From Schmidtea polychroa (lineage: Eukaryota): DNA of 64,000 bases. Positions 15,299-39,456 of the stretch are shown here, piece by piece (the first letter of the stretch is position 1; each line of letters starts with the position of its first letter). The position numbers and the translations under genes are program-made. A model generated the notes under the pieces. It worked only from the letters and a program-made list of their open reading frames with translations. It was not told the origin of the DNA and did no database searches. The stretch lies in the NCBI GenBank assembly GCA_044892525.1, contig CM097885.1:558001-622000 (forward strand), in the 5' to 3' direction.

Positions 15299-15379
15299 TT
15301 TTTATTATAAAAAATGAATAATATAAATCTTAAAAAATAAAATGAAAACAGGGTATCCAATAAAAATTTTTTTCTAAAA

Positions 15380-16012
15380 ATGAATTGTAATATTTGCAAT
15401 AAAGTTTTTAAAAATAAAACTGGATTAATTTCTCACTTAAAATCGAAAGCTCATTTATTAAAAGAAAATAATTTTAATGATACAAATTCAAAACTTTGTC
15501 TTAAATGTAAAGGAAGATTTCTACATTCTGGATATAATAAACATTTTGAAAATTGTATCGGGAAAAATAGAGAAATATTTACATGTCCTCATTGTAACTT
15601 TTCAACAAAACTAAATTTCTATTATTTAGAACATATAAAAGAATGTAAAAATAAAAAACAAAATTCTGACGATGAGGAATGTCATTCAGAAGGAGAGCCT
15701 GATCATGTTGAAAGAGAAAAATATAACTGGGATAATTTTAATCATATAGATGAATTTCAATTAAAAATTAATGGGCCTGCAACTCCTGGAGAATATATAA
15801 ATAAAAATAAAAAAAATATTAAAAATTCTTTCACTGATTCTTTAAAAAATTATAAGCCGACAAGGTATAATGTTATAAAATATAAAATTATAATCAAAGC
15901 AAAATACTGGCGAGGAGCAGAAGAAAAGACAACACCCTTAGATGTTGAAATGGAATACCTTTTAAATATTTATTTTCAATTAAAGGATTTGATAAAACCA
16001 TCAAAGAAATAA
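15380..16012 (+). CDS. Zinc-finger protein (three C2H2/C2HC-like fingers); probable frameshifted N-terminus of pPolB
   Basis: CNIC..H..H, CLKC..H..C, CPHC..H..C; overlaps the open pPolB frame from 15949. Confidence 0.8.
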   Translation: MNCNICNKVFKNKTGLISHLKSKAHLLKENNFNDTNSKLCLKCKGRFLHSGYNKHFENCIGKNREIFTCPHCNFSTKLNFYYLEHIKECKNKKQNSDDEECHSEGEPDHVEREKYNWDNFNHIDEFQLKINGPATPGEYINKNKKNIKNSFTDSLKNYKPTRYNVIKYKIIIKAKYWRGAEEKTTPLDVEMEYLLNIYFQLKDLIKPSKK

Positions 16013-19000
16013 TTAAAGCAGCAGAAGCAAAACAAGAGGAAGTAGAAAATGAATTAGGAGATTCAAACTTAGTATTCAACTCTTTCCAAACTTTAGTGAT
16101 TGATTATTGGAGAGGATTACCACCCAATTCTAAATCTTATATTTCTACACCCTTTAAATCTAAAAATGTTATAAATGTACAGAATAATGATAACAAATGT
16201 TTCATCTGGTCAATACTTGCACATTTACATCCTCAAGCAACAAATCCCCAAAGAGTTTCAAAATACAAACAATATGAAAATGAATTAATATTTCCCAAAG
16301 GATTCAAACACCCAATGAAACTAGAAGACATTCCAGAATTTGAAAAATTAAATAATCTTAAACTTAATATTTATGAACATGTTATAGGGAAAGAAATTAT
16401 TCCAATTTATATTTCAGATAGTGGAACCAAGGATAACGGAGCACAGGACAATGAGATATATCTTTTAATCTTGGAACAAGAAAATAATCAACATTATGTT
16501 TTAATAAAAAACTTTCAAGCTTTTAGATCTCCAGAGAATCCAACTAGTGGAGGAGGAACATGTAAAAGATGTCTTCATTATTCAACAACTAAAAACTCTA
16601 TGATTAAACATACAAGATTTTGTGAAAAAGATGATCCAGCTTTAATTAAAATGCCTAATAATCCCAAGATGTATTTTAAAAACTTTTCAAATTTACTACA
16701 AACAGTTGGAGTTCTTTATGGTGACTTTGAATCTATAAACCATAAACAAGATTTGGTTTATCAATATTTAAAAATAATAGAAAAAAATAAACTCATGGAT
16801 TTATGGAACTCCTCAGGAGAGAAGATGAAACCAGAGAGGATGAAAGCCTTTCTAAGAAAAAGAAATAAACCTAATAGTGTTAAAAAAACTAAACAATTAT
16901 CATCTGCTTATAAATTATTATTTAAAAGTAATTATCCTGAACTCATAGAATCTAGAGAATATTCAATTCTAGGAGGTACCCCTGAAGAAGTCTTGAATCA
17001 TTTTACTAAAAATATAAATGATCTAGAACATGAAATATTTAAAATATTAAAAACAAAGTATCCTCAAAATATTTCTAATCAACAACAACAAGAATATGAA
17101 AATACTTCCAACTGTTGGATGTGTAAACAGAATATTCTTCCTGATGAAAAAGTTATAGATCATGATCATTTAAAAAAGGAAAATAATTATCGAGGAGCAG
17201 CTCATAAAAATTGCAATCTTAATTGCCATACTCCTAAATTTATACCTGTTATATTTCATAATCTTTTTGGATATGACATACATCTATTTATTAAACACCT
17301 CGCAGCAAATGCTAAAAACTCTTTCAAAGTTATCGGCTTAACAAAGGAAAAATATAAATCAATTGAATATGGAAAATTAAAATTTATAGACTCGTTAAAC
17401 TTTCTCCAAATGTCTTTAGATGCAGTAGCAAAAACAATGAAAGCAGAAAATTTTAAAATCACTGGAGAATTCTTGGAAAAAAATAATATTCCTCTAGAAG
17501 AATATCCTACATGTTTAGCAAAAGGAATATATCCTTATGACTATGTTGACTCGTTTGAAAGATATAATGAAACAAGTCTTCCTAGCCAAGAAGATTTCTA
17601 TTCACAACTTCAAAAAAATCATATTACAAATCAAGAATATTCTCGAGCAAATAAAATGTGGGAATTATTCAAGTGTAAAACTTTAGGAGAATATACAAGT
17701 ATGTATTTATCCTTGGATGTTTATATTCTAGCAGATTGCTTTGAAGAATTTACAAAATCTTTTGTTCTTAAACCCTATAATTATATAACTGCACCCTCTT
17801 TAGCTTGGGATACTATGTTATATACCATTTGGACTTCAAATATAGAAGATGCTGATAAAATTATAGATCTTTTAACTAACCTCGATATGTTTAACCAAAT
17901 TAAAACAAACATTAGAGGAGGAGTCTCTTCAGTAATGGGGAATAGAGAAATAAAAGCTAGAAATGCAATAACTACTAGCCGAAGACTATCTAAACACCCT
18001 GATGATCCATATATGAAAATTAACAATGAGGAATTAAAAGAATTATTAGAAACAATGAAAAATCCTATATTTATACTTTATATAGATGCAACAGCTTTAT
18101 ATTCAGGAATTATGACTCAATATTTACCAATGAGTGATTTCACTGAAATAGAGAACCCAACAGATGACCTTATGAAAGAAATACTTTCAACATCGAAAGA
18201 TTCTCCAATAGGTTACTTTATAGAATGTGACCTCGACTATCCAGATGATATAAAATCAGGAACAAGATATTTTCCTTTAGTTCCCATAAGCCGACAAGGT
18301 ATAATGTTATAAAATATAAAATTATAATCAAAGCAAAATACTGGCGAGGAGCAGAAGAAAAGACAACACCCTTAGATGTTGAAATGGAATACCTTTTAAA
18401 TATTTATTTTCAATTAAAGGATTTGATAAAACCATCAAAGAAATAATTAAAGCAGCAGAAGCAAAACAAGAGGAAGTAGAAAATGAATTAGGAGATTCAA
18501 ACTTAGTATTCAACTCTTTCCAAACTTTAGTGATTGATTATTGGAGAGGATTACCACCCAATCCTAAATCTTATATTCCTACACCCTTTAAATCTAAAAA
18601 TGTTATAAATGTACAGAATAATGATAACAAATGTTTCATCTGGTCAATACTTGCACATTTACATCCTCAAGCAACAAATCCCCAAAGAGTTTCAAAATAC
18701 AAACAATATGAAAATGAATTAATATTTCCCAAAGGATTCAAACACCCAATGAAACTAGAAGACATTCCAGAATTTGAAAAATTAAATAATCTTAAACTTA
18801 ATATTTATGAACATGTTATAGGGAAAGAAATTATTCCAATTTATATTTCAGATAGTGGAACCAAGGATAACGGAGCACAGGACAATGAGATATATCTTTT
18901 AATCTTGGAACAAGAAAATAATCAACATTATGTTTTAATAAAAAACTTTCAAGCTTTTAGATCTCCAGAGAATCCAACTAGTGGAGGAGGAACATGTAAA

Positions 19001-20724
19001 AGATGTCTTCATTATTCAACAACTAAAAACTCTATGATTAAACATACAAGATTTTGTGAAAAAGATGATCCAGCTTTAATTAAAATGCCTAATAATCCCA
19101 AGATGTATTTTAAAAACTTTTCAAATTTACTACAAACAGTTGGAGTTCTTTATGGTGACTTTGAATCTATAAACCATAAACAAGATTTGGTTTATCAATA
19201 TTTAAAAATAATAGAAAAAAATAAACTCATGGATTTATGGAACTCCTCAGGAGAGAAGATGAAACCAGAGAGGATGAAAGCCTTTCTAAGAAAAAGAAAT
19301 AAACCTAATAGTGTTAAAAAAACTAAACAATTATCATCTGCTTATAAATTATTATTTAAAAGTAATTATCCTGAACTCATAGAATCTAGAGAATATTCAA
19401 TTCTAGGAGGTACCCCTGAAGAAGTCTTGAATCATTTTACTAAAAATATAAATGATCTAGAACATGAAATATTTAAAATATTAAAAACAAAGTATCCTCA
19501 AAATATTTCTAATCAACAACAACAAGAATATGAAAATACTTCCAACTGTTGGATGTGTAAACAGAATATTCTTCCTGATGAAAAAGTTATAGATCATGAT
19601 CATTTAAAAAAGGAAAATAATTATCGAGGAGCAGCTCATAAAAATTGCAATCTTAATTGCCATACTCCTAAATTTATACCTGTTATATTTCATAATCTTT
19701 TTGGATATGACATACATCTATTTATTAAACACCTCGCAGCAAATGCTAAAAACTCTTTCAAAGTTATCGGCTTAACAAAGGAAAAATATAAATCAATTGA
19801 ATATGGAAAATTAAAATTTATAGACTCGTTAAACTTTCTCCAAATGTCTTTAGATGCAGTAGCAAAAACAATGAAAGCAGAAAATTTTAAAATCACTGGA
19901 GAATTCTTGGAAAAAAATAATATTCCTCTAGAAGAATATCCTACATGTTTAGCAAAAGGAATATATCCTTATGACTATGTTGACTCGTTTGAAAGATATA
20001 ATGAAACAAGTCTTCCTAGCCAAGAAGATTTCTATTCACAACTTCAAAAAAATCATATTACAAATCAAGAATATTCTCGAGCAAATAAAATGTGGGAATT
20101 ATTCAAGTGTAAAACTTTAGGAGAATATACAAGTATGTATTTATCCTTGGATGTTTATATTCTAGCAGATTGCTTTGAAGAATTTACAAAATCTTTTGTT
20201 CTTAAACCCTATAATTATATAACTGCACCCTCTTTAGCTTGGGATACTATGTTATATACCATTTGGACTTCAAATATAGAAGATGCTGATAAAATTATAG
20301 ATCTTTTAACTAACCTCGATATGTTTAACCAAATTAAAACAAACATTAGAGGAGGAGTCTCTTCAGTAATGGGGAATAGAGAAATAAAAGCTAGAAATGC
20401 AATAACTACTAGCCGAAGACTATCTAAACACCCTGATGATCCATATATGAAAATTAACAATGAGGAATTAAAAGAATTATTAGAAACAATGAAAAATCCT
20501 ATATTTATACTTTATATAGATGCAACAGCTTTATATTCAGGAATTATGACTCAATATTTACCAATGAGTGATTTCACTGAAATAGAGAACCCAACAGATG
20601 ACCTTATGAAAGAAATACTTTCAACATCGAAAGATTCTCCAATAGGTTACTTTATAGAATGTGACCTCGACTATCCAGATGATATAAAATCAGGAACAAG
20701 ATATTTTCCTTTAGTTCCCATAAG
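15852..20724 (+). repeat. 2,434-bp internal tandem duplication in the pPolB gene
   Basis: ATAAG microhomology at 15852, 18286 and 20720; near-identical translations. Confidence 0.96.
15949..18312 (+). pseudogene. polB: Truncated first copy of pPolB (ends after motif A at the duplication junction)
   Basis: Same translation as the 18530 ORF (two differences) up to FPLVPI, then out-of-frame junction sequence. Confidence 0.9.
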
Positions 20725-22123
20725 AAGAAAGATTGATATCAACGAACTTCCTGAATGGCAAATCTCACAAGATAAACCTCCAACAATGAAACTTCTTTGT
20801 GATCAAACAGATCGAAGGTTTTATCTTTGTCACTATAGACTCCTCCAATTTTATCTCTCACGAGGAATGATATTAAAAAAAGTTCATAGTGTCATAAGAT
20901 TTAAACAAGCTCCATTCATGAAAGCTTTTATCGAGGAGAACATTAGGTGTCGAAACATTGCAAAAAGAGAAGGTAACCTTTTTAAAGATAATAATTATAA
21001 ACTTTTAAACAATTCAGTCTTTGGGAAAACAATGGAGAATGTTGATAAATATACTCATATTGAACTCCTAACAAATACTACCAAAGATATTAAGCGTTAT
21101 AATCGCATGCTAGGAAAGCCTACATTTAAAAACGCACAAGTATTTTCTGAAAATCATACTGCAGTAGAATTAAAAAATTATGAGAAAACATATAACAAAC
21201 CAATATTTATAGGGTTTACAATTTTAGAACTTTCAAAATTACAAATGTATGAAACATATTATAACATCTTACAACCTATATACGGAGCAAATATATCAAT
21301 GCATGCAATGGATACAGATTCAATGTTTTTAACAATAAGAACTCATGATTTACAAAAAGATATGAAAGAAAATCCTATACTTTCAAATTTAATAAATTCA
21401 TCTGGAGAACTATTTTCGTTTAAAGATGAAAAACCTTTTACTCCTATAGAAAATGGAATATTTATTCGTGCTAAACAATATTCATACGAAACATTTAGAA
21501 ACCCTGAATTTATAACTAGATCATTTATATTTAAAACTCCAGAAACAGAAGAAACCATTACACATAGATATCCTATATTTCCTAAAGGACCAGAGGGACA
21601 AGAAGAAAAACCTGTAAAGGATAACAGATGTAAAGGAATACAGAGAGTGGTGGCAAAGAATCTTTCTCATCAAGATTATATAGATACATTGAATCCAAAT
21701 CATAAAGATAAAATTGATGAAATACATCAACTTAAAAGTGAAAACCATGATATTCACTTGATAGAATCTCAAAAAGTATCATTATCAAATTATGATGATA
21801 AGAGATTCATACTAAGTGATTTAAAGACAACTCTACCTATTGGAAATAATTTAATTCCTATAATAAAAAATCTAGAAAAGTTGAATAAGTTATATGATAC
21901 AAAGATTACTGATCTTGATATTTATAATGTTGAAATTATTTATCCCGAGAGAGAAATCGAGAAACCTTTATATTCTCAAGTTTTTAATCCTATATGTTTA
22001 GAACTTAAATATTTTAATACTGATCCTGAATATATAAAAGGTCTAAGTGATAAAGAATTTAAAGATCATAAATTAATGATTCATAGGTTGGCTTTAACCA
22101 TAACTGAAACCAACGATATTTAA
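18383..22123 (+). CDS. polB: Protein-primed family B DNA polymerase with EndoVII-like insert (open frame begins ~18383; ORF track start 18530)
   Basis: Exo YGDFES and FHNLFGYD; DHDH...YRGAAH..CN; YIDATALY, KLLNNSVFGK, MDTDS, AKQY, DDKR. Confidence 0.96.
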   Translation, partial: NGIPFKYLFSIKGFDKTIKEIIKAAEAKQEEVENELGDSNLVFNSFQTLVIDYWRGLPPNPKSYIPTPFKSKNVINVQNNDNKCFIWSILAHLHPQATNPQRVSKYKQYENELIFPKGFKHPMKLEDIPEFEKLNNLKLNIYEHVIGKEIIPIYISDSGTKDNGAQDNEIYLLILEQENNQHYVLIKNFQAFRSPENPTSGGGTCKRCLHYSTTKNSMIKHTRFCEKDDPALIKMPNNPKMYFKNFSNLLQTVGVLYGDFESINHKQDLVYQYLKIIEKNKLMDLWNSSGEKMKPERMKAFLRKRNKPNSVKKTKQLSSAYKLLFKSNYPELIESREYSILGGTPEEVLNHFTKNINDLEHEIFKILKTKYPQNISNQQQQEYENTSNCWMCKQNILPDEKVIDHDHLKKENNYRGAAHKNCNLNCHTPKFIPVIFHNLFGYDIHLFIKHLAANAKNSFKVIGLTKEKYKSIEYGKLKFIDSLNFLQMSLDAVAKTMKAENFKITGEFLEKNNIPLEEYPTCLAKGIYPYDYVDSFERYNETSLPSQEDFYSQLQKNHITNQEYSRANKMWELFKCKTLGEYTSMYLSLDVYILADCFEEFTKSFVLKPYNYITAPSLAWDTMLYTIWTSNIEDADKIIDLLTNLDMFNQIKTNIRGGVSSVMGNREIKARNAITTSRRLSKHPDDPYMKINNEELKELLETMKNPIFILYIDATALYSGIMTQYLPMSDFTEIENPTDDLMKEILSTSKDSPIGYFIECDLDYPDDIKSGTRYFPLVPIRRKIDINELPEWQISQDKPPTMKLLCDQTDRRFYLCHYRLLQFYLSRGMILKKVHSVIRFKQAPFMKAFIEENIRCRNIAKREGNLFKDNNYKLLNNSVFGKTMENVDKYTHIELLTNTTKDIKRYNRMLGKPTFKNAQVFSENHTAVELKNYEKTYNKPIFIGFTILELSKLQMYETYYNILQPIYGANISMHAMDTDSMFLTIRTHDLQKDMKENPILSNLINSSGELFSFKDEKPFTPIENGIFIRAKQYSYETFRNPEFITRSFIFKTPETEETITHRYPIFPKGPEGQEEKPVKDNRCKGIQRVVAKNLSHQDYIDTLNPNHKDKIDEIHQLKSENHDIHLIESQKVSLSNYDDKRFILSDLKTTLPIGNNLIPIIKNLEKLNKLYDTKITDLDIYNVEIIYPEREIEKPLYSQVFNPICLELKYFNTDPEYIKGLSDKEFKDHKLMIHRLALTITETNDI

Positions 22124-22201
22124 TTTTTTAATAATAAAATGTCGACAATTAATTTAAGCAACTATAGCAACCTGATCTACTTTTTTAAAAATACACCCAT
22201 T

Positions 22202-22762
22202 TTATAAGTAAGAATTCTTTAACCATTTTTCTCGAGATGTTTTTTTATTACTTATAACATTAGCCACCATGCCCTCCCTTTTTAATCTTATAACCTCATT
22301 CTTTATATCTTGTATTATTTGATTTGATTTCATTATTTCTTCGTCTGTCAGGATTCCATCTTCCAAAGCTTTTAATTGAAATAAAAATAATTTAGAGATT
22401 CCTAATTCTATTGATAAACAAACTTCTCTATATAAACTTTTCTTTTTAGAAGTATAAGATAATGAAACTATTTCAGTTAAGAAACCATCAGCCACAGAAA
22501 TACTTCCAAGTATTACAGGTGCAAGAGTAACAACTGGTAAAGTTATGGGTAAAATAACTGTTAATATTGCAGATGCAAATCCTAAAGAATAATCTATAAC
22601 TTTTAAAACTGTATTCCCTTTATTCCATCTATTTTTAATTTTTTTATAATGCTTTAATAAATCTTGTAAATGTAAGGTTTCTGATTTAAATTCTTTTACT
22701 CTCATAATTTCAAGTTCTGTGGGAGCCGAGGCCTTGGAAGAATAATATCCTGATGATCTCAA
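22202..22762 (-). CDS. Predicted two-TM membrane protein, resembling the 'GasderminX'-type ORF of adintoviruses (tentative); start uncertain
   Basis: Central hydrophobic pair, upstream in-frame IYPEL...SAP, C-terminal KALEDGILTDEE. Confidence 0.55.
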   Translation of the reverse strand: MRSSGYYSSKASAPTELEIMRVKEFKSETLHLQDLLKHYKKIKNRWNKGNTVLKVIDYSLGFASAILTVILPITLPVVTLAPVILGSISVADGFLTEIVSLSYTSKKKSLYREVCLSIELGISKLFLFQLKALEDGILTDEEIMKSNQIIQDIKNEVIRLKREGMVANVISNKKTSREKWLKNSYL

Positions 22763-22806
22763 TTCTGGGTAAATTTTTTCTTCTCTTACTTCTTCCTTTT
22801 TAATAT

Positions 22807-23817
22807 TTAAAAAAATAAGACTTTATTCTTCTGAGCACCATCTGGCACCAATACTCGGATGTCAAAAGAAACTCTTGTTGAGAGGATATCTTTATACAAT
22901 TCTCTCAATGCTTTACGAACTTCATCAACATCAACCTTTTTTTCATAAAATATTAAATCTATATATTGTACAAGTGAACTAGAAAAATGAATATTCTTAC
23001 TTTTAACTTTATGTAGTCCATGTGAATGAGTATTAACATACCAATCTCCGTGTGGTAAATCATAACTAGTCATTATAACATCACCCTTTTCAAGCTTACT
23101 ATTATAATCACATTTCACAAACCATTTCATTCTTTCATTATCATCATCAAACAAAAAGAAATAAGGATCAATAATTTTTACAACCATAAAAACACCCCAT
23201 TCTTTACTGTTTGTTGTTATTAAACTTGGTTCTATAAAATGTTTATATGTATGGGGTAATAATGTTTTATTCTGTTCTAATTCAGCAGCTCTTTTTCTAA
23301 TACTATGTGTGGTGTTAATGTGTGTTCCATGAGACTCTAAATTTGAAATTCTTTTATTAAATGATGTAATCATCTCATTTATTATTTTATATATTGTATT
23401 AAATTTAGTATTCATAATTTGTTTATCTTTAGAATTTAATATAGCAGTATTTAATTTTACAACTTGTTCAGTTAACAGACTTTGTAACTTGTCAAATTTA
23501 TCATTAAATCGTTGTTCGATATTATTAAGCTTTGATTCCATTGAATCAATGTTTGTTGTTAATGAACTTTCAATTCTTGTTGTTGTTAAATCAGTAAAAT
23601 TTTTAACACCATCAACATATTTTTTATTAACTGCATCAGCTTCATCAGTTGGTAAAGATAAATCTTTTATCTTGTGTCCATTTAAATTTAAATCTCCTTT
23701 CATTGAATCACCTCTTTCATTAATATATTTATTTTCTGTTAAAGTTAATATTTCTTCTGTATTAAACCCTGTTTTTATTGTTCTACCACCTCTATTACAT
23801 GGAATATAAGAACTCAT
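22807..23817 (-). CDS. Fiber/spike-like virion protein
   Basis: GDSMKGDLNLNGHKIKDLSLPTDEADAVNKKYVD motif, then a coiled coil, an RKR/AA site and a globular C-terminus; adjacent to the penton gene. Confidence 0.65.
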   Translation of the reverse strand: MSSYIPCNRGGRTIKTGFNTEEILTLTENKYINERGDSMKGDLNLNGHKIKDLSLPTDEADAVNKKYVDGVKNFTDLTTTRIESSLTTNIDSMESKLNNIEQRFNDKFDKLQSLLTEQVVKLNTAILNSKDKQIMNTKFNTIYKIINEMITSFNKRISNLESHGTHINTTHSIRKRAAELEQNKTLLPHTYKHFIEPSLITTNSKEWGVFMVVKIIDPYFFLFDDDNERMKWFVKCDYNSKLEKGDVIMTSYDLPHGDWYVNTHSHGLHKVKSKNIHFSSSLVQYIDLIFYEKKVDVDEVRKALRELYKDILSTRVSFDIRVLVPDGAQKNKVLFF

Positions 23818-23841
23818 TTATTAATAATTTAAAATGAATCT

Positions 23842-24605
23842 TCAAACCTGTTTCAAATGTAAATACATTGAAATCTCTTCTCCATTAAAATCAATCAATT
23901 CTCCTTCTTGATTAAGAATTTTAAAATTAATATCCATTATATATTTTCTACATAAAGGTAAATAATTTGGAGGATTCATTCTTTCAACTATTTTATATCC
24001 CATAGGAACTGTGTTTGAGGGAAAGGAATATAAAACATTTGTTTGTTTACCATTATTATAAAAACCTGTTATACAATCGCAATGAATATTTATTGTGTTT
24101 GTATTTATTATTTTTATAATATTTTCTGATGTTATTATTTTATCTTCTTTTATTGTTATATCCATAGGTTTAAATCCTAAAACTGTGTAAAGAAACAATT
24201 ATCTAAAAAACTAATTTTTAAATTCTTCAAAGTCATTACACATTTTGAAGTTGGTATATCCATTTTAATTTTAATACCTTCATTTGTTTTTTTAGAAAGT
24301 ATATCATTTAAATCTTTTATCTCATATGCCCCAGGTTCTATTGTTATAATTTCTGGTTTATGCCCATCACGAGTTTGAATAGTAAATTTATTATTATCTT
24401 TAGTTATATTAAAAATAGTATTATAAGCACAAAACCATAATAGCCCCAATTCATAATTTAAATTTTGATCTAATTTAATTGAATCTTGAAAGTTTATAGT
24501 AAAGTCTGATTCTTTTGAATTTATAGATAAAGTTCTTGAATATTTATCTGACATTATGTTTACCATTTTTTTTAAATTATCTTCCGGAGGCTTGTGAAGC
24601 TCCAT
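23842..24605 (-). CDS. Minor capsid protein (penton, single jelly-roll), split by one frameshift near 24195
   Basis: FTINF..IKLD..YELGL, IEPGAYEIKDLN, VLGF, INIHCDCITG.Y.NG, NQEGELIDFNGE motifs. Confidence 0.85.
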
Positions 24606-24653
24606 TTCTTTAGTAGTAAATTCATATAGTAAAAATCCTTATAGTAAAAATCC

Positions 24654-25118
24654 TTATAGTAGAGATTCTAGATCATTATAAATTTCTTGAATTATAGATT
24701 CAAAATCCTGCGTATGCCCCTTTCCCTCTTCCTTATTCAATCTATACAAAACATATAAACTTAAAATACCACATATTTTAGTATTCAAAGGTTGAACTTG
24801 TAAAGAGTTAAAAGTATAACCATTTGGGGAATCAATCGGAGAACCCCTCAAGAGATAATCTTCAACTTCTTTAGTAGGTTTAATCCCAAAAGAATCAAAG
24901 TAGATAGATTTCTTATATATACAAACCCAATGAGATCCTTTTTCATTTGAATTTTGATAATTGATTATTATATTCAGGGGACTCTCCAGACTTGATAATT
25001 CATCATTCATTAATATTTTAATTTTTAAATTTAAATAATTTGCATAATCTTTTAAATCAAAATTTGTTTTTGCATTTATTCCAAATGTTTTTAAAAAATC
25101 TAATATTGAAGGAGTCAT
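24654..25118 (-). CDS. Adenain-like cysteine protease (maturation protease)
   Basis: GSHWVC, YFDSFG and QVQ...CG catalytic motifs. Confidence 0.93.
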   Translation of the reverse strand: MTPSILDFLKTFGINAKTNFDLKDYANYLNLKIKILMNDELSSLESPLNIIINYQNSNEKGSHWVCIYKKSIYFDSFGIKPTKEVEDYLLRGSPIDSPNGYTFNSLQVQPLNTKICGILSLYVLYRLNKEEGKGHTQDFESIIQEIYNDLESLL

Positions 25119-25140
25119 TTTGTATTTTAAAACTTCGTAT

Positions 25141-26022
25141 TTATAACTTCGTATACTTATTAAATTTATCTTTTGAAATTATTCCTTGTTTTAACAAATC
25201 TTTAGAAATCTTTAAAATATCAGAATCTAAATTATTATGTCCTGCTTTCCTTGCAGCTAATAGTTTTCTTAATTCAATAAAAAGATTGATGGGATTTGGT
25301 TTACCACCTTCACTAATTAATCCCTCTCCCTCTGTAACAACATAACCCTTTTCATTTTTATTTAAATAATTCTTTAAATCTTGAATATATTTTGCTTTAG
25401 AACTAGCTCTTATTAATCTTATTAAATTTAAATATTTTTTAATTTCTTCAACATCATCTGAAGAATATCCACAAAGTAATCTATAAAAATCATCTGTAAA
25501 TTCAAAGTCTAAATATTCATTATTATAAACATTTTGTGAATGAATACGTGATTTATTTTCTGAATTTGAATATAAAGTAAAGTTTTGTTTATTAATTGTT
25601 ATTATTTGATATCCTTCAGTATTAGTATTAAATGTGGGTCTAATTGAAGGAGGTAAATCATCTCTAATTTTAGGATCAACTTTAAGAGGTTTTGTTTTTA
25701 AAAACATTTCTTCTTCTTCCACATTAGAAATTCTTCTGCGTTTTCTTTGATTTCTTTCAGGATGGTTTTCACTGGATTCTTTTTCTTTATCCTGCCACTC
25801 TAGTTCTTTTATTTTTTGTTTTTTATCTTCTAACTCTTTAAATTTTGCTTGCTCATTGAAATCTTCCAACTCTTTTATAGCTTTAATTGTTGGCCCCTTT
25901 TGTTGTGTTATTACCTCATTTAATATTATAGATTCAGCATGTTGAGTTGTATCTTTTTTATTATATTTATCTTGTTCTGATTGTAATTTTTTTAAAAGTG
26001 CTAATCTTTCTTCATATACCAT
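25141..26022 (-). CDS. Polinton protein of unknown function
   Basis: 293-aa ORF; GEGL followed by P..L..EL..LLAARKAGHNN, a C-terminal pattern I recall from Polinton ORFs. Confidence 0.65.
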   Translation of the reverse strand: MVYEERLALLKKLQSEQDKYNKKDTTQHAESIILNEVITQQKGPTIKAIKELEDFNEQAKFKELEDKKQKIKELEWQDKEKESSENHPERNQRKRRRISNVEEEEMFLKTKPLKVDPKIRDDLPPSIRPTFNTNTEGYQIITINKQNFTLYSNSENKSRIHSQNVYNNEYLDFEFTDDFYRLLCGYSSDDVEEIKKYLNLIRLIRASSKAKYIQDLKNYLNKNEKGYVVTEGEGLISEGGKPNPINLFIELRKLLAARKAGHNNLDSDILKISKDLLKQGIISKDKFNKYTKL

Positions 26023-26044
26023 TTTAATGGTATCAAAAATGGTA

Positions 26045-26623
26045 TCATAGTTCGAAGGGCTTCAAGTATAATCCTTTACCATTTTTAGTTTTACAAAGGC
26101 ATCCATTCTTTAAAGATTTACATATTTTTTTTAAATCTTCTTTATCTTTTGAAGATAAAGATTCAGATGTAGAAATTTGATTTTTTAAAAAATCATTTAA
26201 ACCTCTACCTTTATAAGGATCAAGATAGAGACCTTTGCCCTGAGACTTTTGCCGACTCCCCTCATATGGATTAAGATAGAGACCCTTTCCAACGGACACT
26301 CCCCCTTTAGCTTGCCCTACCTTCTTCATTGAATCGATTTCAGTTTGTAGTTTTTCTTTTTCTAGGTCTGTCTTTTGAGATTCTTTAGCTTTTTGAACTG
26401 TAGTTGCAATTCCTCCAGCTAATCCAGCAGCACCTGATAAACCAGCAATGATTGCAGGTATTAAAGCAGCTAATGGAAGAATGCCACCTTCTTTAGCTTC
26501 GTGGAGCTTCGCTCTAACTTGTTCTTTTACATGTTTTCCAATAAAATATTTTTTACCATCAATTACTACTGATTTATTTTTATTTGAATTTATTAATTCT
26601 TGCAAAGATTCTTCAGTTGTCAT
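26045..26623 (-). CDS. Adenovirus pX-like core/membrane-active precursor
   Basis: GGILPLAALIPAIIAGLSGAAGLAGGIAT; repeated GKGLYLxP(Y/F). Confidence 0.7.
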   Translation of the reverse strand: MTTEESLQELINSNKNKSVVIDGKKYFIGKHVKEQVRAKLHEAKEGGILPLAALIPAIIAGLSGAAGLAGGIATTVQKAKESQKTDLEKEKLQTEIDSMKKVGQAKGGVSVGKGLYLNPYEGSRQKSQGKGLYLDPYKGRGLNDFLKNQISTSESLSSKDKEDLKKICKSLKNGCLCKTKNGKGLYLKPFEL

Positions 26624-26638
26624 TTTATAATAAACAAA

Positions 26639-27442
26639 ATGGATGTACGAAGTCCAATAATTTGGAAACCAATTTTAAATAGACATAAGAGTAAATTTAA
26701 TAATAAAGTATTTCCTGATAATTTTAGATTATTAATTGTTGGTTCTTCTGGATGTGGAAAGAATGTACTTGTTTTGAGAATGTTACATGAAGATGATTTT
26801 TTAGATTATAATAATTTAATCTTTTATTCTACAACCATAAATCAACCAGAATTACAACTTTTGAAATGTGGATTTGAAAATAAATTAACTAAAAAAGCAA
26901 TAATTGATATTTTTAAAAATCAACATAGGTGTCCTGAAGAAGTTTTTCAACCTTGTGATATGGTTGATTGGTATAAGGAAAAGATTTTAGAATCAGATAT
27001 TAGTAATAAAAATGATTATATTTGTGAAGAAGGGCAGGAGGCAATTCAAGTTTTATTCTCTAATAAACCTGAAGATGTTTTACATTGTGATTTACTTCCT
27101 AAAGATAAAAAGAATCTAGTTATATTTGATGATGTTGTTAATATGAAAAATCAAGAGATTCAAAAGAGTTACTTTACACGAGGTCGACATAATAATTGTA
27201 ATGTTATTTATATATCTCAAACATATTATGCTTTAGATAAAAATTCAATAAATAATTCCAATTGTTTTATATTTTTTAAATTAGATCGCCGTGATAAGAA
27301 TATGATTTATAATGATTTATTTTCAAATGTTGAACCTGATAAGAATATGTTTGATATGTTTGTTGATAATCATTGGAAAGAAAAATATAATTATATTTAT
27401 TTGGATAGAGAAGAAGCTGAAATATGGAAAAGTTTGTTTTAG
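26639..27442 (+). CDS. A32/FtsK-like genome packaging ATPase
   Basis: Walker A GSSGCGKN, Walker B LVIFDD, TRGRH, YISQTY. Confidence 0.95.
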   Translation: MDVRSPIIWKPILNRHKSKFNNKVFPDNFRLLIVGSSGCGKNVLVLRMLHEDDFLDYNNLIFYSTTINQPELQLLKCGFENKLTKKAIIDIFKNQHRCPEEVFQPCDMVDWYKEKILESDISNKNDYICEEGQEAIQVLFSNKPEDVLHCDLLPKDKKNLVIFDDVVNMKNQEIQKSYFTRGRHNNCNVIYISQTYYALDKNSINNSNCFIFFKLDRRDKNMIYNDLFSNVEPDKNMFDMFVDNHWKEKYNYIYLDREEAEIWKSLF

Positions 27443-27453
27443 GGCTTGTCGAC

Positions 27454-28262
27454 TTAAAAATCTGTTTTCTGTAGTTCATTATTATAAAATCTACCTAATA
27501 TTTTTTCATTATTTAAATCAAAGATGCTATATGTTATTGGAGTTATATAATGTATTTTATTTATAATAAAAATTTCATTTGTCCATTTTGCTGTGAATCC
27601 TTTTTCAAATTTATTTTATATTTAAATATTCTTACTCGGTCACCAATTTTAAACTTTGGTTTTTCAATAACATCATTTTCAATATTTACCACTTTAATGG
27701 TTTCAGGCTTCATAGAAGCATTTAAAGGTGTTAATTTTATAGAACTATGTACATCATTATTATATTCATTTACAATCTTTTGTAACAATTCATTGTTCCA
27801 TTTTTGTTTTCCAATAGCAGTAAAATATTTCCACATTTTATTTTTTAATGTTCTATTTAATCTTTCAACTACGACTGCTTTTCCTTCGTTTTCTGTTGAA
27901 TATAATTTAATATCATTTTCATTTAAAAACTTTGTAAAAACTTTGTTATAAAATTCTGTTCCTTTATCACACCATAAATATTTTGGGATTCTTTGATTTT
28001 CTTCAAATATATTTTCAAATGCTTCTGTAATAGAATATCCTGTTTTATTTTCTAAACATCTTGCAAAAGCAAATCTTGTATATAAATCTATTACAGTTAA
28101 AATTATTTTATATTTTTCAGGGTCTGATGATTTGGGCATAAAGACTAAATCTGCAGACCATGTTTGATCTTTTTCATGTACTTGAACTTTTAAATATTTT
28201 TTATTTTTTCTAAATTCATGGTGTAATTCCTTTGCATATTTTATTTCTGATTCTGTTGGGGT
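27454..28262 (-). CDS. Retroviral-like (rve) integrase; frameshift near 27617; no Met before the first catalytic Asp
   Basis: AKELH...WSADL, WCDKGTEF, VERLNRTLK; the shifted frame gives KFEKGFTAKWTNEIF...FYNNELQKTDF. Confidence 0.92.
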
Positions 28263-28858
28263 TTATAAACTAGTCTTGGCTGTACTCTCGAGGGATCTTT
28301 CAATCTCTGCTTGTTCGATAATCTTTTTATAAGCAACATCTTTTGCTTTCCTAGGAAGTCTTGCACCCATGGTGATCGGACTGTGTCCTAAGCCTATGAA
28401 AATCTTACCTTTCATTGCTAATTTAACTAGAGCTCTTTGAATCTTTTCTTGGGTTGATGGATTTTGGTTACTATTTAAATCATGTATTAAATTCACATCT
28501 GCAACATGTCTATCTCTAAGATTTGTTGAATTGTATGCAATGTCATGTTTTAAAGCTGCTTGATCAATTCTATTTATTGGTTCTTCTCCTTGTTTGGGAT
28601 TATTATTTTCATCTAATCTAATATCTAGACGTGTTCCTGGTCCAGTATAGTTGTGTTTAAATAAATGTCTTTCACCTGGATATTTTTCTGTAGTAAAAGG
28701 TTTTAATATTGAAGATGTTGTTTTTGAAGATTGCAAATCGCCTCCAGCTCGTGGAATTAGGTCACCTACTGTATGTTTTTTAGTTTTAAGATGATTTGCT
28801 TTATGATTACTTGACAATTACAAGTTTTACATCTCCAATAGGGTTTATTTAAAGACAT
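28263..28858 (-). CDS. Parvovirus VP1-type phospholipase A2 domain (PLA2X) with a frameshifted N-terminal C2H2 finger
   Basis: HNYTGPGTRL...PINRIDQAALKHDIAY; ATG at 28858 gives MSLNKPYWRCKTCNCQV, joining HKANHLKTKKH after a 1-nt shift. Confidence 0.88.
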
Positions 28859-28875
28859 TTTAAAATGTTAAAATA

Positions 28876-30168
28876 TTAAGAATCTCCCCTAACATTTTCA
28901 ATAATTGAAATCTTTCCACCATATAATTTCATTTCTATTTTCTTTTCTTCTAATATTAATGTATATACTTTAGCTTTAAAATTAGAATCCTTTGTTACAT
29001 GAAGTGTAACATCAACATTATTTATGGCTAGGCGATCATCTTGGTCTGATACATTTTTACAAAATATAGAATATAAATTTTTGAAATCTTCTAAACTTAA
29101 TTGCGGTTCAACTTTGAAATCATAACATGTTTCAATATAATTTAGATATGGGAATATGTTTTCATTATTTTCAATATTAAATTCCATTCTATTTATTGGA
29201 TAATAAGAACTATTTAATTGAATTTGGATTGTTTTTAAATTATCATCTCCAATCTTTTGAATAAATAGATTGTTATTTTTTTGGAAAGATGAATCTGTTT
29301 CTTTGAATCCAATCAAGATATATCTTGGTCGGTATGCTAAATTTGCTACCTTTATAGAATATGTTGAACCCTCTGTCATACTAAATTCACTACAGATTCT
29401 ATTTAAATAATTTACATTTATAGACTTGTTGGAATTTAATCTTTCAAGGAGTTTAATCTCAGAATGTGGGTTTAATGTCCATTCAGGTATATGTAATTCA
29501 AGTGTTGATAATTTTAATTTAGCTTTTGTATCTACAGCTCCATAGAACAATCTTTTATCACCTTCTACTCTATTACAGATGAATTCTATAAAAACATTAT
29601 GAAGTATACGATTATAGTTTTGAAGGAATCCAAACAAGTGTTTTAATTCAAAATAACCTTCAAATGTTTTAGATTTATAAAGTTCAGCTCTTTTATGGTA
29701 ACCATGGTTTACATCTAAACCATCTTTATCTAAATCCCCTTTATTAACATCAGGAATCCAACCTGTTAATTCACCATATTCGTTTTTATAATCACAACCA
29801 GTCAAAATAAAATTTAACATTGTAGAATATACTCCCGGATGCAAAACAGTTTCAATTTCTGATGATCCTAGTTTTAATCTCATGTTGGAGAATAAATTTG
29901 GAAAGAAATTATTTTCTAGGGTTATATCTTTGTTTGCTTCAATTTCTAATTCTACTTTGTAATATAATTTGGCATTACAAATATCTATTGGGTTTGATGT
30001 TTGAAGAGATTGAAAAACTATATCACCCCTACGATTTAAGTTTGCAATAGATCCTGAAGTTGGCGAGATTTTTAAAATATCATTTTTTTTAATTTCATGA
30101 GTAAATTCTTTATTATAATCAAGATTTAATTTATTTTTTTCTTGAATTTTAAGATTTATATTATTCAT
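28876..30168 (-). CDS. Major capsid protein (double jelly-roll, hexon-like), ~430 aa
   Basis: Size, beta-rich pattern, NNFFPNLFS.MRL.LG..EIE, LKHLFGF..Y, RPRYILIGF and QLNSSYYP motifs; position in the element. Confidence 0.88.
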   Translation of the reverse strand: MNNINLKIQEKNKLNLDYNKEFTHEIKKNDILKISPTSGSIANLNRRGDIVFQSLQTSNPIDICNAKLYYKVELEIEANKDITLENNFFPNLFSNMRLKLGSSEIETVLHPGVYSTMLNFILTGCDYKNEYGELTGWIPDVNKGDLDKDGLDVNHGYHKRAELYKSKTFEGYFELKHLFGFLQNYNRILHNVFIEFICNRVEGDKRLFYGAVDTKAKLKLSTLELHIPEWTLNPHSEIKLLERLNSNKSINVNYLNRICSEFSMTEGSTYSIKVANLAYRPRYILIGFKETDSSFQKNNNLFIQKIGDDNLKTIQIQLNSSYYPINRMEFNIENNENIFPYLNYIETCYDFKVEPQLSLEDFKNLYSIFCKNVSDQDDRLAINNVDVTLHVTKDSNFKAKVYTLILEEKKIEMKLYGGKISIIENVRGDS

Positions 30169-30254
30169 TTTTATATATAAAAGTTGATAAAAATAAAATT
30201 TGAAAAATAAAAATAAAAATAAAAGGGAATTCATTAAAAAAATAATTTATAAAA

Positions 30255-30476
30255 ATGATTGACTTTATTGAAAGAATGACAAATGAATTGAATGAAGTTA
30301 AACTTAAGAGAATAAAAAGAAGAGAAGAAGAACCATTAGAATACATTAAAGAGTTGGTGGTAGAGAATGAAAAGTATCGACATTTTTACATGAATGCAGT
30401 AGAAGTAGCTGAGAAAAGATTAGATAAAATAAAACAATTACAGGAAAGAATAAAAGAACTTGAATCGATTATTTAA
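30255..30476 (+). CDS. Small coiled-coil protein abutting the right TIR
   Basis: 73-aa E/K/R-rich heptad pattern. Confidence 0.55.
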   Translation: MIDFIERMTNELNEVKLKRIKRREEEPLEYIKELVVENEKYRHFYMNAVEVAEKRLDKIKQLQERIKELESII

Positions 30477-31416
30477 AAAAATGACAAAAAATCCAAACCT
30501 TGATAGTAGTGGGCTAGACTGACACAGTGGTTCAAAATGCTAGCGGTTCAAATCACATCTGAGGTTAGTTTTTTTTTCAACATAAAATAATATTAAAAAT
30601 TTGAAAATAATATTGAAAATAGTGTGGGTATCTTATATTTATAAAGTACTTGTATATTTTATTTTATTTATTTTATTTTATTTTATTTTTTTATTAATTA
30701 ATTATTTTTTAAACATAAATATGAAAAAAAAATATTGAAACGGGTGATGGTGGCGAACCGGTAATTATCGCCACCTGTCTTTCGAACACCCCCGGATCGA
30801 TTCCGGTAATGTGCACATTTATTTCTCAGTTGTTTTCGGACCTCTTTCGGATTCGCTTTCGAATTCATTTGTACTTTCGAGCAGCACACTTAAAACGCCG
30901 ATGAAATCGTATTCGAGCGAGAAGCGAATAATAAGGTGTGCTGCTATTATCGGATTGATTCTGATGTATGAGTCTGGCCAGCTTGTATATTGGAAGAGAT
31001 TCGATAAACGAAAGAGGTTGATAAATAAAAAAAATGATCCGGATCAAAAAAAACTGTTGAGGTGACAGTGAAAAAAAAAAAAAAAAAATACCACTGTCCC
31101 CTCAGAGCAGTTTTACTATTTTTCATTTATTTCTTAATTTATATAATTTAAAATCAATAATCTGATAAAGATCAAATAGCCCTCTAACTTTTTCATAATG
31201 CCATTTTTTTTTCTATTCTCTTTTTAGTTTGAAGCTTTTGAGTTTGAGGCTTTAAAGATTAAAACAGTTAGAGTCATTAAGGGTGGTTGTTTTCAAAATA
31301 TAGGGTTAAAATACTATAAAAGTATAAGTTTTAGGTTGTTTTTCTAATAGCTTAAGTGATTTGGAGGCATGTTTTGTTAGGAGGGCTGTTTTGGTTGGGT
31401 ATATAACCACACTACT
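30472..31416 (-). repeat. Right TIR of Polinton A
   Basis: Reverse complement of the left TIR, ending ACCACACTACT. Confidence 0.96.
30497..30577 (+). ncRNA. Right-TIR copy of the Pol III-like unit with an altered A box
   Basis: TAGTAGTGG replaces TGGCGCAGTGG; B box and T9 run intact. Confidence 0.4.
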
Positions 31417-31422
31417 TTTATT

Positions 31423-31868: not shown

Positions 31869-33310
31869 AACAGTTTATACGGTAAAACTGTGGAAAACTT
31901 GAAGAAACGTATAAATTTGAGATTATGCAACAAAAGCAAAAGATTTATAACTTATTGTAGTCATCCTATGTTTCGTCGTAGCATCAAGATTGCGGATGAT
32001 CTCATTGCTGTTATACTCAATAAGGAATATGTGTGCTTAGATAGACCAATGTATATTGGACAAACCATACTTGATTTATCCAAACTTCGCATGTACCAAT
32101 TTCAATATAAAGAGCTACTGAGTTATAGAGAAGAATTCAATTGTCAAATTAATATCGTAGCCGGTGACACAGATTCCTTCTTTTTAGAGTGTAAAAATGT
32201 AGATTTACGCCTACAACTGTATCCAAAAACGATTGAAGATGGGCTCTTAGATACTTCAAATTATCCAGTGACCGATCCGTTGTTCTCTGATGAAATTTGT
32301 TCTGTAATCGGGAAAGTTAAGGATGAGAATAAAGGAAATCAATATAAAGAATGGGTGTTTCTTCGACCCAAGTGCTACTCACTCCAAGGCGATAAAAACA
32401 CTCTAAAAGCCAAAGGAATAAGACTTACAAACTCTAATCTTACACATGAAGCCTATAAAAAGTGTATACTGATGGTGGAACAGTGAGTATCCCACAAAAA
32501 AGAATAGGAAGTGTCAATCATCAGTTGTATACTTTCATGACAGAAAAACGAGCTCTCCAATGTTTGGACGATAAAAGGTATTGGTACAATTGTAATGAAA
32601 GCTATGCCTACGGTCACTATAAGATTCGTCAAATGCATATTGCAACTGCTATGTCTAGAAATGAATGCAAATCGAAACAAGGACTTTAACAATTAAATTT
32701 ATGTGAATAATAAAATATATATTGTGAATTATTTGACTTCGTTAATTAAAATATGTTTTATCATTTAATAATTCATTTGTCCAATTAATTTAGATAATTA
32801 GTTTTAAGTAAGAATTATTATTTATCATGAAAAACTTTGCTTTGTTTTGAAAAATTAATGCCCATTTTATTTTAAATTAACACAGCTTTATTTTATGATT
32901 ATTACTAATTAAAATTTTATTCAAATTGAAATATTATTGTTACAATTTACACTCTTGTTAGAATATATTAAATGTAAATGTAAAATAATAACAATAAAAA
33001 AAAATAATAATAATTATAAATAAATAAAAATTAAATTAAAAAAAAATTAATTAAATAACGTAAGTAATTAAAATAAAATATTAATAAATAATTAATTAAT
33101 TAAATGTAATAAATTGAAAATTAACTAAAGTAATTAATTAAAACAAAAAACATAATAAAATAATTAATTAATAAATTTAAAAAAAAAATTAAATAGAAAA
33201 AATTAAATAAATTTAAAAAAAAATAAATAGAAATGATTCTATTGACCTATATTTGATCTGGACATTGGGATGACCTTGAAAGTGTCCTGGAGTCCTCACT
33301 ATATACTACT
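31869..33310 (+). mobile_element. polB: Family-B element right end: pPolB 3' part (31869-32689, one frameshift) plus terminal repeat ending ACTACT
   Basis: NSLYGKTVENL, GDTDS, RPKCY, DDKR motifs; terminus CTCACTATATACTACT at 33310. Confidence 0.88.
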
Positions 33311-35555: not shown

Positions 35556-37845
35556 CAGGGGTGCCCAGTAATTTTTCTAGGAGTGCTACATTCACATCCA
35601 AAATGTGTATGCGATCTACTTTTTTAATACTTACATAATATTTACCTACAATGCAATAAATTCATCACAATAGAACAAATATATGTCAAAATATGGAAAA
35701 TTAAACTAGGTAACTATTTATTATAAAAAAATGTAACTTAGGAAATCAAATTTAATGAAAATTATTGTTATATAGAACTTTTGGATGTTGATGCTCTACA
35801 TTGGGTTGAATCCACTAGATTTTTGTAGTTTGGGATATAAGTGCTAAGACAACTTCTTAGGCTGGATTCCAAATGGTCATCTGTTAATGTTGCTCGGTAC
35901 TTTGACTTAATAATTTTCATATGTGAAAATGCAGACTCACATAAATAAGTTGAACCAAAAGATGATACTAAATTTTCGAAGCATTTTTTCAAGTTTGAAT
36001 ATTTATCCTCTGATAGATATTTCCATACATTTGGTTCGGAAGATCTTGATTTAATGAAGATATCATTTTGAAGTGTGATTATTTCCATTTCAAGTATAGG
36101 GATATCCATTTTAAACAAAGTTGAAATTGAATCTGCAACAATTTCTGGCTTTATTTTTGGATTAAACGGAAAGGACATAAATGCAGCCACAATTTCAAGT
36201 TTCTTGAAGTCTTGAAAACGTCTCTCGAACTCTAAAACCAAAATTTTGATCTGTTCCGCATATCTCGTAATATTAAAGTTGACATTTTCAGATTCTTTTA
36301 ATTGTGACAACATATTTGGAAAATAACTTAAATTTTTGTCTTTTATTTTGATAATAAGTAAATGAAGCTTTTGTATAAATGCAATGATTGAACTTATCAT
36401 ATCGAATATCAATTTATCCTTACGATGTAAGTCGAGATTTAATTCATTCAGAATTGCAGTAATATCTACTAAAAATGCCAAATCCAAGAGCCAAACATCA
36501 TCTTCCAATTGCTTGAACTCATCACCTCTTGCGGCAAGGAACAACTTAATCTCAGAAAGCAAATCTCTAAATCTTTGTAAGAATTTTCCTCTACTTAGCC
36601 ACTTTACATCTGAATGCATCAGTAATTCAGCAGGACCTTCGCTATTACTTTCTTCAATTTGTAATTTGAAAAGTCGTCTCTGAAGACTTCTTGCACGAAT
36701 CGAGTTAGCAATTTTGAATGTTATTTCCATAATATCTCTCATATTCAGAATTTTAGCACACTAGGCTTGTTGATGAATAATACAGTTGTAGGAAAGAAAA
36801 TCTGGGAATTCACAATCATTCCTACAATATGCTATAAATCCGTTGTGACGCCCTGTCATAGCTGGTGCGCCATCTGTTGTTATTGATACAAGCTTACAAA
36901 TTTGGAGCTGAATGCTGTTGGCATAAGCTTTAAAATTCTGAAATATATCCTCACCTCGAGTTTTACTTTTGAGTGGTATAATTGTTAATAATTCTTCCTT
37001 CGTAGAAAAATCTTTAAAGACCATTCGAATAAAAATTATAAGCTGCGAAATATCAGCCGCATCAGTTGATTCGTCTGCTTGCAATGAAAATGCAGTACAA
37101 TTTCCTATGTCTAACATTAACTGATATTTTAAATTGGTACTTATTTCTTGGACTCTTCGTGTAACTGTATTACGGGACAATTGCATATCAGTAATAGCAG
37201 AAATTATATCTGATTTATTTTTAAAATCACAAAATAGTGATTCTGCCGCTTCTAAAAATGCTTCTTTTACAATTACTCCATCACTAAAAGATTTCTTATT
37301 TTTTGCCAGAATGTAGCTTACTCGGAAAGATGCAGCTGTAGCTGACTTTGATTTCGATGCTAGCTTCGTAAAAAATGACTGTTGAAAAAAAATGCATGTT
37401 TTCAGTTCCATGATTTTAGACTTGCGTAGTTCACTGTCAAGTGGATAATCAACTGCAAAATTCTTATGAATTGTCTTGAAATGCCTTTCCAAATTCCCTC
37501 TTTTTGGTAATGAAATAGTAGCTTTACAAATTAAGCAACAACATTTACCTTTAATCATTACAAAAAAGTACTCCTTCTCCATTTCTTCGCTATAATGATA
37601 AGTCTTGGCTTTTCTATTTAGCATTTTTTATTTAGCATTTTTTTATTTAGCATTTTTAAACAAAATTAATTTAACAAAAAAAGCTTAAGAAAATTTTTCA
37701 CTTTGTTACACAAAAATTTAAGTATAAAACAGAAATTTTATATAAAATCTAAATTTATATATAAAATATTTTTTTTATGAAGATCTACTAAAAAATCCTT
37801 CGCGATCTACCGGATAGATCGCGATCGAACTTATGGGCACACCTG
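35556..37845 (-). mobile_element. hAT (Buster/SPIN-like) DNA transposon, 2,290 bp
   Basis: TIRs CAGGGGTGCCCA / TGGGCACACCTG; 8-bp TSD TTATACAT (35548-35555, 37846-37853) fits nnnTAnnn. Confidence 0.96.
35768..37624 (-). pseudogene. hAT transposase (GTF2IRD2/SPIN-like), ~618 codons, one premature TAG at 36761-36763
   Basis: CLIC...LERHF..H, ADESTD, TTDGAPAM, CIIHQ, WLSRG and FGSTYLCESAFS motifs; both ORFs are in the same frame. Confidence 0.93.
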
Positions 37846-39456
37846 TTATACATCGTTCCTAAGTTTTAAATGGAACTGTAATTAATTTACTACTATTAAA
37901 TAAAGGAAACAATTTCCATTACGTTGCTATAAGTAATTTAAATAGGTTACTGAATTGTGGTATCAACACTAGTTGTCCTACACGCATACGTTCATTATGG
38001 TGCCATCGGTGTTTGAATGGGTTTAGGTATAAACAAGCACTGGAAAAACATGAAATATTATGTAAACGTAATCAATTAGGAACAACTCTTTACACTTTCC
38101 CTCAAAATAAATTATTGCAGTTTACTGACTGGTCGAAAACAGTAACTCCTCCTTTTGTAGTTGATGCCGATTTTGAGGCTATTTTACCTTCTGATAATGT
38201 TCATTTCCAACGACACATGACAATATCTGCTGGTCTTTTACTTGTAAATAACTTTGACGGATCTAAATCTTATCAACAGTTCATAGGTTTAGATTGCGTC
38301 GAGAGTTTTTTAAGTGTTATAGAGGATATAGCATTAAATAAGTTTCTTCCTTTTTATTATAAAATGGGTAGCAAACCTATGATTAAATTAACGAAAATTG
38401 AACAACGTCAATTTGTTAGTGCATCTGTTTTTTATCTTTGTATGAAATCTATCGTTGATCCTGTTAGAGATCACGATCATTTTACGGGGAAATACTTGGG
38501 TGCAGCTTGTAGCACATGTAACAAAAATAAGAAAATAAATAAAATTTTGCCTATCGTATTTCACAACTTGAAGGGATACGATATGCATCATATACTTAAA
38601 TACGGATTAAATAAATTTAGAAATTGGACTTTAGGTTGCATCCCAATAACGACTGAAAAAATTATTTCTTTGATTGCGCATTTAGGCAAAAGAATTGATT
38701 CTTATCAATTCATTGATTCTTATCAATTTGTTAATGATTCTTTAGCTAAAGCAGTCAAAACTTTGAATTCTTAGCCTTTTACTAATTCTGTTTTTTCTGG
38801 CACTATAGTTTCTGAAAAAGGAATCTTCCCTTATAATTTCGCTACATCTTTAGATATTCTCCAAACTACTTATGAATTACCACCAATCTGGGAGGGTGTT
38901 ACTGAGCTTTAGTATGAAAAAGCTCAGGAGATTTGGGTAGAAACTAATTGCCTAATTTTATTAGATTATATGATGATCTACTTAAAACTTGATTGTTTTC
39001 TTTTGGCTGATTTCTTTCATCAGTTTCGGTTGAAATCTATTGCTCACAATAGATTGGAACCATTGAATTATTTCGGAATTCCAGGTATGTCTTGGTCTTC
39101 TGCATTAATGTCTTTAAATGAACCAATTGAGCTCATAACTGAAAACGAAATGTTTAGCTTTTATGAGGGTGGAATAAGAGGCGGTATTACTTTTGTGAAT
39201 TAGCATTACGTAAAAACCGATGAGAACACCGAGTTACTTTATATAGATATTAATAATCTTTATGGTTGGGCTTTAAGTCAATCATTACCTTGTGGTGAAT
39301 TTAGTTGGGTTCTTGATGGATTTGATTTAATAATGGATGAAAGTAGGAATTTAAATCTTGATTCTTTGTCTTATGGATACACTCTTGAAGTTGATCTTGT
39401 AATTTCTTCTGAGCTAAATGAGAAGTTGGATGATTTCCCTGAAGCAGCTGAAAAAT

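Follow-up and report, generated by a model that had tools for sequence, protein, structure and literature searches.

Polinton/Maverick elements are recognized by terminal inverted repeats (TIRs) together with a target duplication of 5-8 bp, as stated in the available part of 10.1101/2023.08.22.554363. Polinton lipases, including PLA2X, have been proposed in the accessible text of PMC4642659 and PMC8502044 to be packed into virions and to serve membrane penetration, and virions of animal Polintons have not been observed according to the available part of 10.64898/2026.06.19.733378. Within the accessible sections of PMC8502044, PMC5803895 and PMC11071296, PLA2X and the integrase have a gene each, and the integrase carries a chromodomain. 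The same sections, together with those of PMC3671162, PMC11296320, PMC11131425, PMC4642659, PMC11161782, 10.64898/2026.06.19.733378 and 10.1101/2023.08.22.554363, either assign PLA2X/CAP and integrase to different genes or make no mention of PLA2. We found no statement of a PLA2-integrase fusion in the available text of the literature searched. The architecture itself (PF08398 plus PF00665) is already present in databases without a name, for example in an Oculina protein.

We analyzed a window of 64,000 nucleotides from Schmidtea polychroa (contig CM097885.1, positions 558,001 to 622,000), that is, the whole stretch of DNA to which all coordinates below refer. Our data indicate that positions 14358-31416 of the window (17,059 bp) are a whole Polinton/Maverick copy of the adintovirus-like type, with AGTAGT...ACTACT ends and a 6-bp target-site duplication, TTTATT, on its left (14352-14357) and right (31417-31422). 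The left (14358-15299, plus strand) and right (30471-31416, minus strand) TIRs form arms of approximately 945 bp that are 97.6% identical, with 13 mismatches and 5 gap openings over 949 columns. A protein-primed family B polymerase, an rve integrase with a D-D-E triad, TIRs with a target duplication and a capsid module are all found in this copy. The capsid and ATPase genes were assigned by Pfam, namely a major capsid protein (28876-30234, minus strand; PF21738, E 2e-25) and a packaging ATPase (26639-27442, plus strand; PF04665, E 5e-09). The penton and the protease were assigned solely by similarity to IMG/VR loci. The adenain-like cysteine protease (24654-25118, minus strand) has an open frame and a weak Pfam match, and 13 of the 31 loci contain counterparts of it at 29-40%; the penton (minor capsid) gene occupies 23842-24605 (minus strand).

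Several of these genes are damaged, and our data indicate that the copy is decaying. The penton gene is frame-broken near 24200 and split over two frames, onto which the single ORFs of four loci can be mapped (253-278 aa in L003, L004 and L008; 240 aa in L016). The last conserved position of the ATPase Walker A motif departs from all three relatives checked. The polymerase region (15380-22123, plus strand; PF03175, E 5e-13) contains a 2,439-bp tandem duplication (15852-18290 and 18286-20724) with 2 mismatches and 0 gaps, which is either a recent event or an assembly artefact, and we infer a further frame change near 15950-16010. Outside the element, the window holds fragments of other Polinton-type polymerases, 30-34% identical, at 31968-32486, 38217-38774 and 40080-41370. 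Minus-strand ORFs at 8968-10464, 11788-13569 and 35768-37624 are presumably, as judged by eye, non-LTR reverse transcriptases and a hAT-type transposase.

Within this element, three-frame translation and tblastn delineate a broken zinc-finger-PLA2-integrase fusion gene at 27454-28858 on the minus strand, the strand of all its features given here. The start codon (ATG at 28858) shares a frame of its own (28808-28858) with the CxxC half of a C2H2-like zinc finger. The first break is located near 28808-28826 by translation and by the tblastn frames of three relatives (P0002, P0124 and P0125), and loose contig ends fall at 28805-28807. A second frame (28817-27564) holds the His half of the zinc finger, the PLA2, the stop codon and the integrase core. 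The PLA2 domain is of the parvovirus type (28422-28667; PF08398, E 5.4e-10), with its Ca-loop and His-Asp catalytic pair intact, and a Gly-x-Gly motif, a candidate protease site, stands at the end of the PLA2 module (28386-28394). The second break is an in-frame TAA in the linker (28263-28265). It is followed by 41 Met-free codons (28262-28140) that, as the preliminary description had noticed, contain the first catalytic Asp of the integrase (28151-28149); they also supply its N-terminal helix. The rve core spans 27900-28178 (PF00665, E 2.8e-12), and the D-D-E triad, whose third residue is at 27866-27864, is intact in the window copy. The first Met after the TAA, at 28139, is downstream of the first integrase Asp. 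The third break lies near 27613-27615, behind which the C-terminal tail of the integrase continues in a third frame (27454-27615) and shares 96% identity with the 53 C-terminal residues of P0002 and P0125. A domain search gave no chromodomain match in this tail or in P0002 and P0125; further fused relatives, P0095 among them, do have one.

The preliminary description had presented the gene as one reading frame interrupted by a single TAA. The TAA does close the PLA2 frame at the position given, but the gene is spread over three frames with three breaks, so the notion of a single break was wrong; the span of 1405 nt is not divisible by three, and tblastn with the two nearest relatives returned three frames. 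A stop would result from 226 of the 3600 single changes that are possible in this frame. We estimated that a gene of 1405 bp at the divergence of the TIRs should carry approximately 0.6 nonsense changes and 3.7 indels, an estimate that presumes identical TIRs at insertion and one rate. Compared with P0125, the gene has one stop, two frame changes and three in-frame length differences. The stop in the window gene is thus not in excess of chance.

We used the long frame, with the stop read as X, as query in a homolog search that returned 571 proteins. Both PLA2 and integrase were found in one open chain in 116 of the best 120 of these matches, which bears out the architecture that the preliminary description had proposed looking for, and an internal stop or X was absent from all of the best 120. 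The zinc finger was detected in 12 of the best 120, many of which may be cut at the N terminus. The predicted fusion of approximately 467 aa has close counterparts in P0002 (86% identical, 463 aa), an open zinc-finger-PLA2-integrase chain with the tail, and in P0125 from the cluster of P0002 (92% identical, 470 aa; 97% over integrase columns), which likewise has the zinc finger and tail. Both are collinear and open across all three window breaks, and the TAA aligns without a gap to a residue of P0125, with flanks that agree at 29 of 30 residues. Like the window copy, these close relatives lack a separate integrase start.

Both the query and the length window bias this first search towards fusions. 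A search in which the query was restricted to the PLA2 piece retrieved 47 short and 20 long proteins; all 20 long proteins carry rve, and the best overall match was the fusion P0002. Among the short relatives with the catalytic motif (n = 44), some of which may themselves be cut or broken, only one ends within 3 residues of the window stop position, a distant protein whose tail is unrelated. Fifteen of the 44, including the two closest, end approximately 10 residues or less from the glycine motif. When homologs were reduced to representatives at 50% identity, the best 150 comprised 24 fused proteins, 125 without PLA2 and 1 without the integrase. Taken together, the sequences indicate that the PLA2-integrase fusion is real and common, a minority form overall yet the rule within the window lineage.

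Phylogeny of the integrase places the window with fused proteins only (36 of 36), with a support of 1.0 in a fast tree and 100/99 in a second tree. The fast tree (155 rows) has 13 changes between fused and stand-alone labels compared to a mean of 48 after shuffling, which hints at repeated independent origins of the fusion. We make no such claim, since a single fused clade was not rejected (p-AU 0.49) on a 42-row subsample consisting of 17 fused rows from multi-member groups and 25 of the 94 stand-alone rows taken at random.

Genomic loci present a more varied picture. A single-protein metagenome scan gave 1 fragmentary locus, a first viral scan gave 0 and an alignment-based viral scan gave 30. 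Both domains are present in 11 of the 31 loci, fused in one (L002) and in genes far apart in eight. In L004, which is 43% identical, PLA2 and integrase are adjacent and the integrase has its own ATG. L003 (9668-11328) belongs to an otherwise intact-looking Polinton in which the two adjacent genes are separated by a frame change in the linker, with no integrase Met before the first Asp. No usable slippery site was found in the L003 linker, and this break, the second one in the linker region, is probably due to chance. We considered -1 frameshifting from PLA2 to integrase and rejected it, given the integrase ATG of L004 and the location of the slippery-like heptamers of L003 behind the stop of the PLA2 frame.

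Sister copies were compared over 27300-29000 in 4 of 24 listed sequencing runs (X1, X5, X7 and X15, from four studies), all represented by contigs, with X15 counted as RNA by guess only. At the stop codon, a letter other than that of the window accounts for 73% (X1), 94% (X5), 100% (X7) and 79% (X15) of contig depth, so that the codon is mostly different in other copies in all four runs. At the third break, contigs of all four runs differ in length from the window sequence, and at the first break many contigs end loose. Since the other letter dominates contig depth at the stop codon, open copies appear to prevail, with the limitation that summed contig depth is not a copy number and that contigs cannot phase the stop.

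Together, these data suggest that the TAA is very probably a nonsense mutation in a decaying Polinton copy, since the nearest relatives are open, most contig depth carries another letter and the copy has other lesions (the penton frame break, the polymerase duplication and the Walker A change). The number of breaks in the gene also agrees with the divergence of the terminal repeats. The window copy would have gained the linker nonsense mutation and two frame changes after or around insertion. Of the two origins that the preliminary description had left side by side, nonsense and readthrough, the former is thus supported, while the latter is opposed by open relatives and the lack of a signal.

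We next considered whether the stop is older than this one copy and marks a non-autonomous or PLA2-only sub-lineage amplified in trans. The depth without the other letter at the stop is 27% in X1, 6% in X5 and 21% in X15, compared to less than 1% of X1 depth at three private-looking sites, where more than 99% of X1 depth differs from the window; the stop is therefore possibly common to a sub-lineage. However, the residual depth could represent a third letter, or this locus with its duplicates, and summed depth does not count copies. We regard a sub-lineage as unlikely, and it is compatible with decay since it alters only when the stop arose.

It is improbable that the element is intact and that its three breaks arose through errors of sequencing or assembly. 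In favor of such errors, the frame changes lie in A/T-rich sequence and other copies are open. The stop, however, is a substitution, and a share of independent contigs is without the other letter. In addition, the gap-free 2,439-bp duplication with its 2 mismatches makes a high rate of random indels unlikely, an argument that is weak if the duplication is itself an artefact.

Programmed readthrough, as in retroviral gag-pol, would make the TAA set a ratio of abundant PLA2 to rare PLA2-integrase, and we consider it very improbable. The TAA does sit in a linker between complete domains, the integrase is without its own start, a minority of contig depth in three of the four runs may carry the stop, and both split and fused forms occur naturally. 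Against this, the stop is absent from the nearest relatives, and the one short PLA2 relative of 44 that ends within 3 residues of its position is the distant protein with the unrelated tail. The stop in the window has the context UAA-A, which is not known to be leaky. For the 141 nt that surround and follow the stop, predicted folding is not stronger than in shuffled sequences (z -0.20), and Rfam gave no match. Since the gene has two further breaks, the window copy would be unable to make the integrase even with readthrough.

Hardly credible is an intron or spliced leader that removes or bypasses the stop, or an independent start of the integrase, since a close relative is collinear across the stop, no acceptor-like site lies within 165 nt downstream, no GT..AG joint was found among the 15 of 28 contig joints listed, and an integrase begun at the first Met (28139) would miss its first catalytic Asp, although the distant L004 has adjacent genes with an integrase ATG and eight other loci have the two genes far apart. 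The separate integrase ATG that would have counted against the fusion is thus absent in close relatives and present in the distant L004.

We also examined the properties of the encoded protein. The PLA2 His and Asp are conserved in 114 of 120 relatives, and the D-D-E residues of the integrase in 120, 120 and 119 of 120. In a structure model of the fusion (mean pLDDT 80, pTM 0.57), the PLA2 is helical and predicted with confidence; confidence falls at residues 145-156 (pLDDT below 50), after which come a helix and the integrase core. In fold searches, the integrase core resembles the integrases of foamy virus (E 2e-10) and MELD virus (E 3e-15), and the PLA2 resembles densovirus VP1 (E 3e-05).

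We found G-G or G-x-G after the PLA2 in 103 of 116 fused relatives and GG before it in 70 of the 90 rows that extend that far, both as counts from alignment columns. The 12 residues after the glycine motif have a pLDDT below 50, a low score that may also stem from a poorly aligned variable linker. The adenovirus adenain site has Met, Leu or Ile at P4 and Gly-Gly or Gly-x-Gly at the cut. Only 9 of the 116 fused relatives follow this rule; P4 is Lys in 74 of 116, and it is Phe in the window copy. Cleavage by adenain at GLG, as suggested in the preliminary description, is therefore plausible: the conserved glycines and a possibly flexible loop speak for it, but the P4 residues, including that of the window, do not. 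Furthermore, PLA2X proteins that stand alone also end in the glycine motif, and its conservation is therefore not necessarily a sign of cleavage.

Glycine motifs of this kind occur elsewhere in the element. A 192-aa basic protein at 26045-26623 (minus strand) contains four GKGLY-type Gly-x-Gly repeats and three Gly-Gly sites and is likely to be a core protein and a further substrate of this protease. The major capsid protein (28876-30234, minus strand) has a Leu-x-Gly-Gly 13 residues from its end that fits the adenain rule. Joined frames of other composition were also observed among the loci, each open and possibly accidental: L012 (2740-4248, plus strand) encodes a cysteine protease, an rve integrase and a chromodomain in one 503-aa frame, while L005 (340-1371, minus strand) and L013 (471-1535, minus strand) encode PLA2 and a cysteine protease in one open frame.

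We propose that this Polinton lineage encodes a zinc finger, a parvovirus-type PLA2 and an rve integrase in one gene, which open copies, as their sequences indicate, would translate as one chain. Since PLA2X has been proposed as a particle protein, the fusion would bring the integrase into the particle. The PLA2, predicted to belong to the capsid core and to disrupt the endosomal membrane, would carry the integrase with it, and the cysteine protease of the element would cut at the glycine motifs flanking the PLA2 during maturation, such that an incoming particle would deliver free lipase and free integrase. We offer this towing and release only tentatively, at slightly less than even confidence. 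Alternatively, the product may be an uncut bifunctional PLA2-integrase protein, or neighboring genes may have been fused by loss of a stop and the fusion may have no function of its own. A shade more doubtful is the broader hypothesis of a widespread and apparently undescribed lineage of animal Polintons with a packaged integrase-PLA2 polyprotein freed by a protease with a Lys-P4 rule unlike that of adenovirus, of which the protease-integrase and PLA2-protease fusions might be variants.

The stop itself is unimportant, as a product of probable decay, while the fusion may matter as a route by which the integrase of Polintons reaches a new cell. As a fixed link between the integrase and a predicted entry protein, the fusion provides a testable handle, since the integrase would be expected as a particle protein and as a protease substrate. 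If true, this would be sequence evidence for delivery of the integrase in virions and hence for a true extracellular infection cycle of Polintons. A caution for annotators is that gene callers place the start of the integrase in broken copies at a Met that lies past the first catalytic Asp, as seen in P0122 and five members of the P0096 cluster. These five, out of 14 other members listed for that cluster, are calls of 236 aa from contigs of 40-87 kb, and several copies may share one upstream break.

The closest known system is the virion module of the Alpha/Mayetiola-class adintoviruses, as described in the accessible part of Starrett et al. 2021 (PMC8502044). Within that same text, the features shared with the window element are a pPolB, an rve integrase, an ATPase, a cysteine protease, a double-jelly-roll capsid, a penton, TIRs, a 6-bp target duplication and a parvovirus-type PLA2. 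Of the features that define Alpha adintoviruses (Starrett 2021; Buck 2024), PLA2X is present (PF08398) but fused to the integrase, and the C-terminal chromodomain is absent. The window copy thus differs from the adintoviruses described in the available text by its single gene, its N-terminal zinc finger and its lack of a chromodomain. With the PLA2 of the parvovirus VP1 unique region (PF08398), the window PLA2 shares the Pfam family, the Ca-loop and the His-Asp pair; the parvovirus enzyme is tethered to a capsid protein, while that of the window is tethered to an integrase. In retroviral Gag-Pol, a structural module brings an enzyme into the particle, and the viral protease sets the enzyme free. 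The model that we infer is similar in that an enzyme, here an integrase with a core of retroviral fold, would ride on a structural module and be released by a protease. Recoding is not supported in the window lineage, where the relatives are plain in-frame fusions, and compared to Gag-Pol the window element is DNA virus-like and has a protease of the adenain type.
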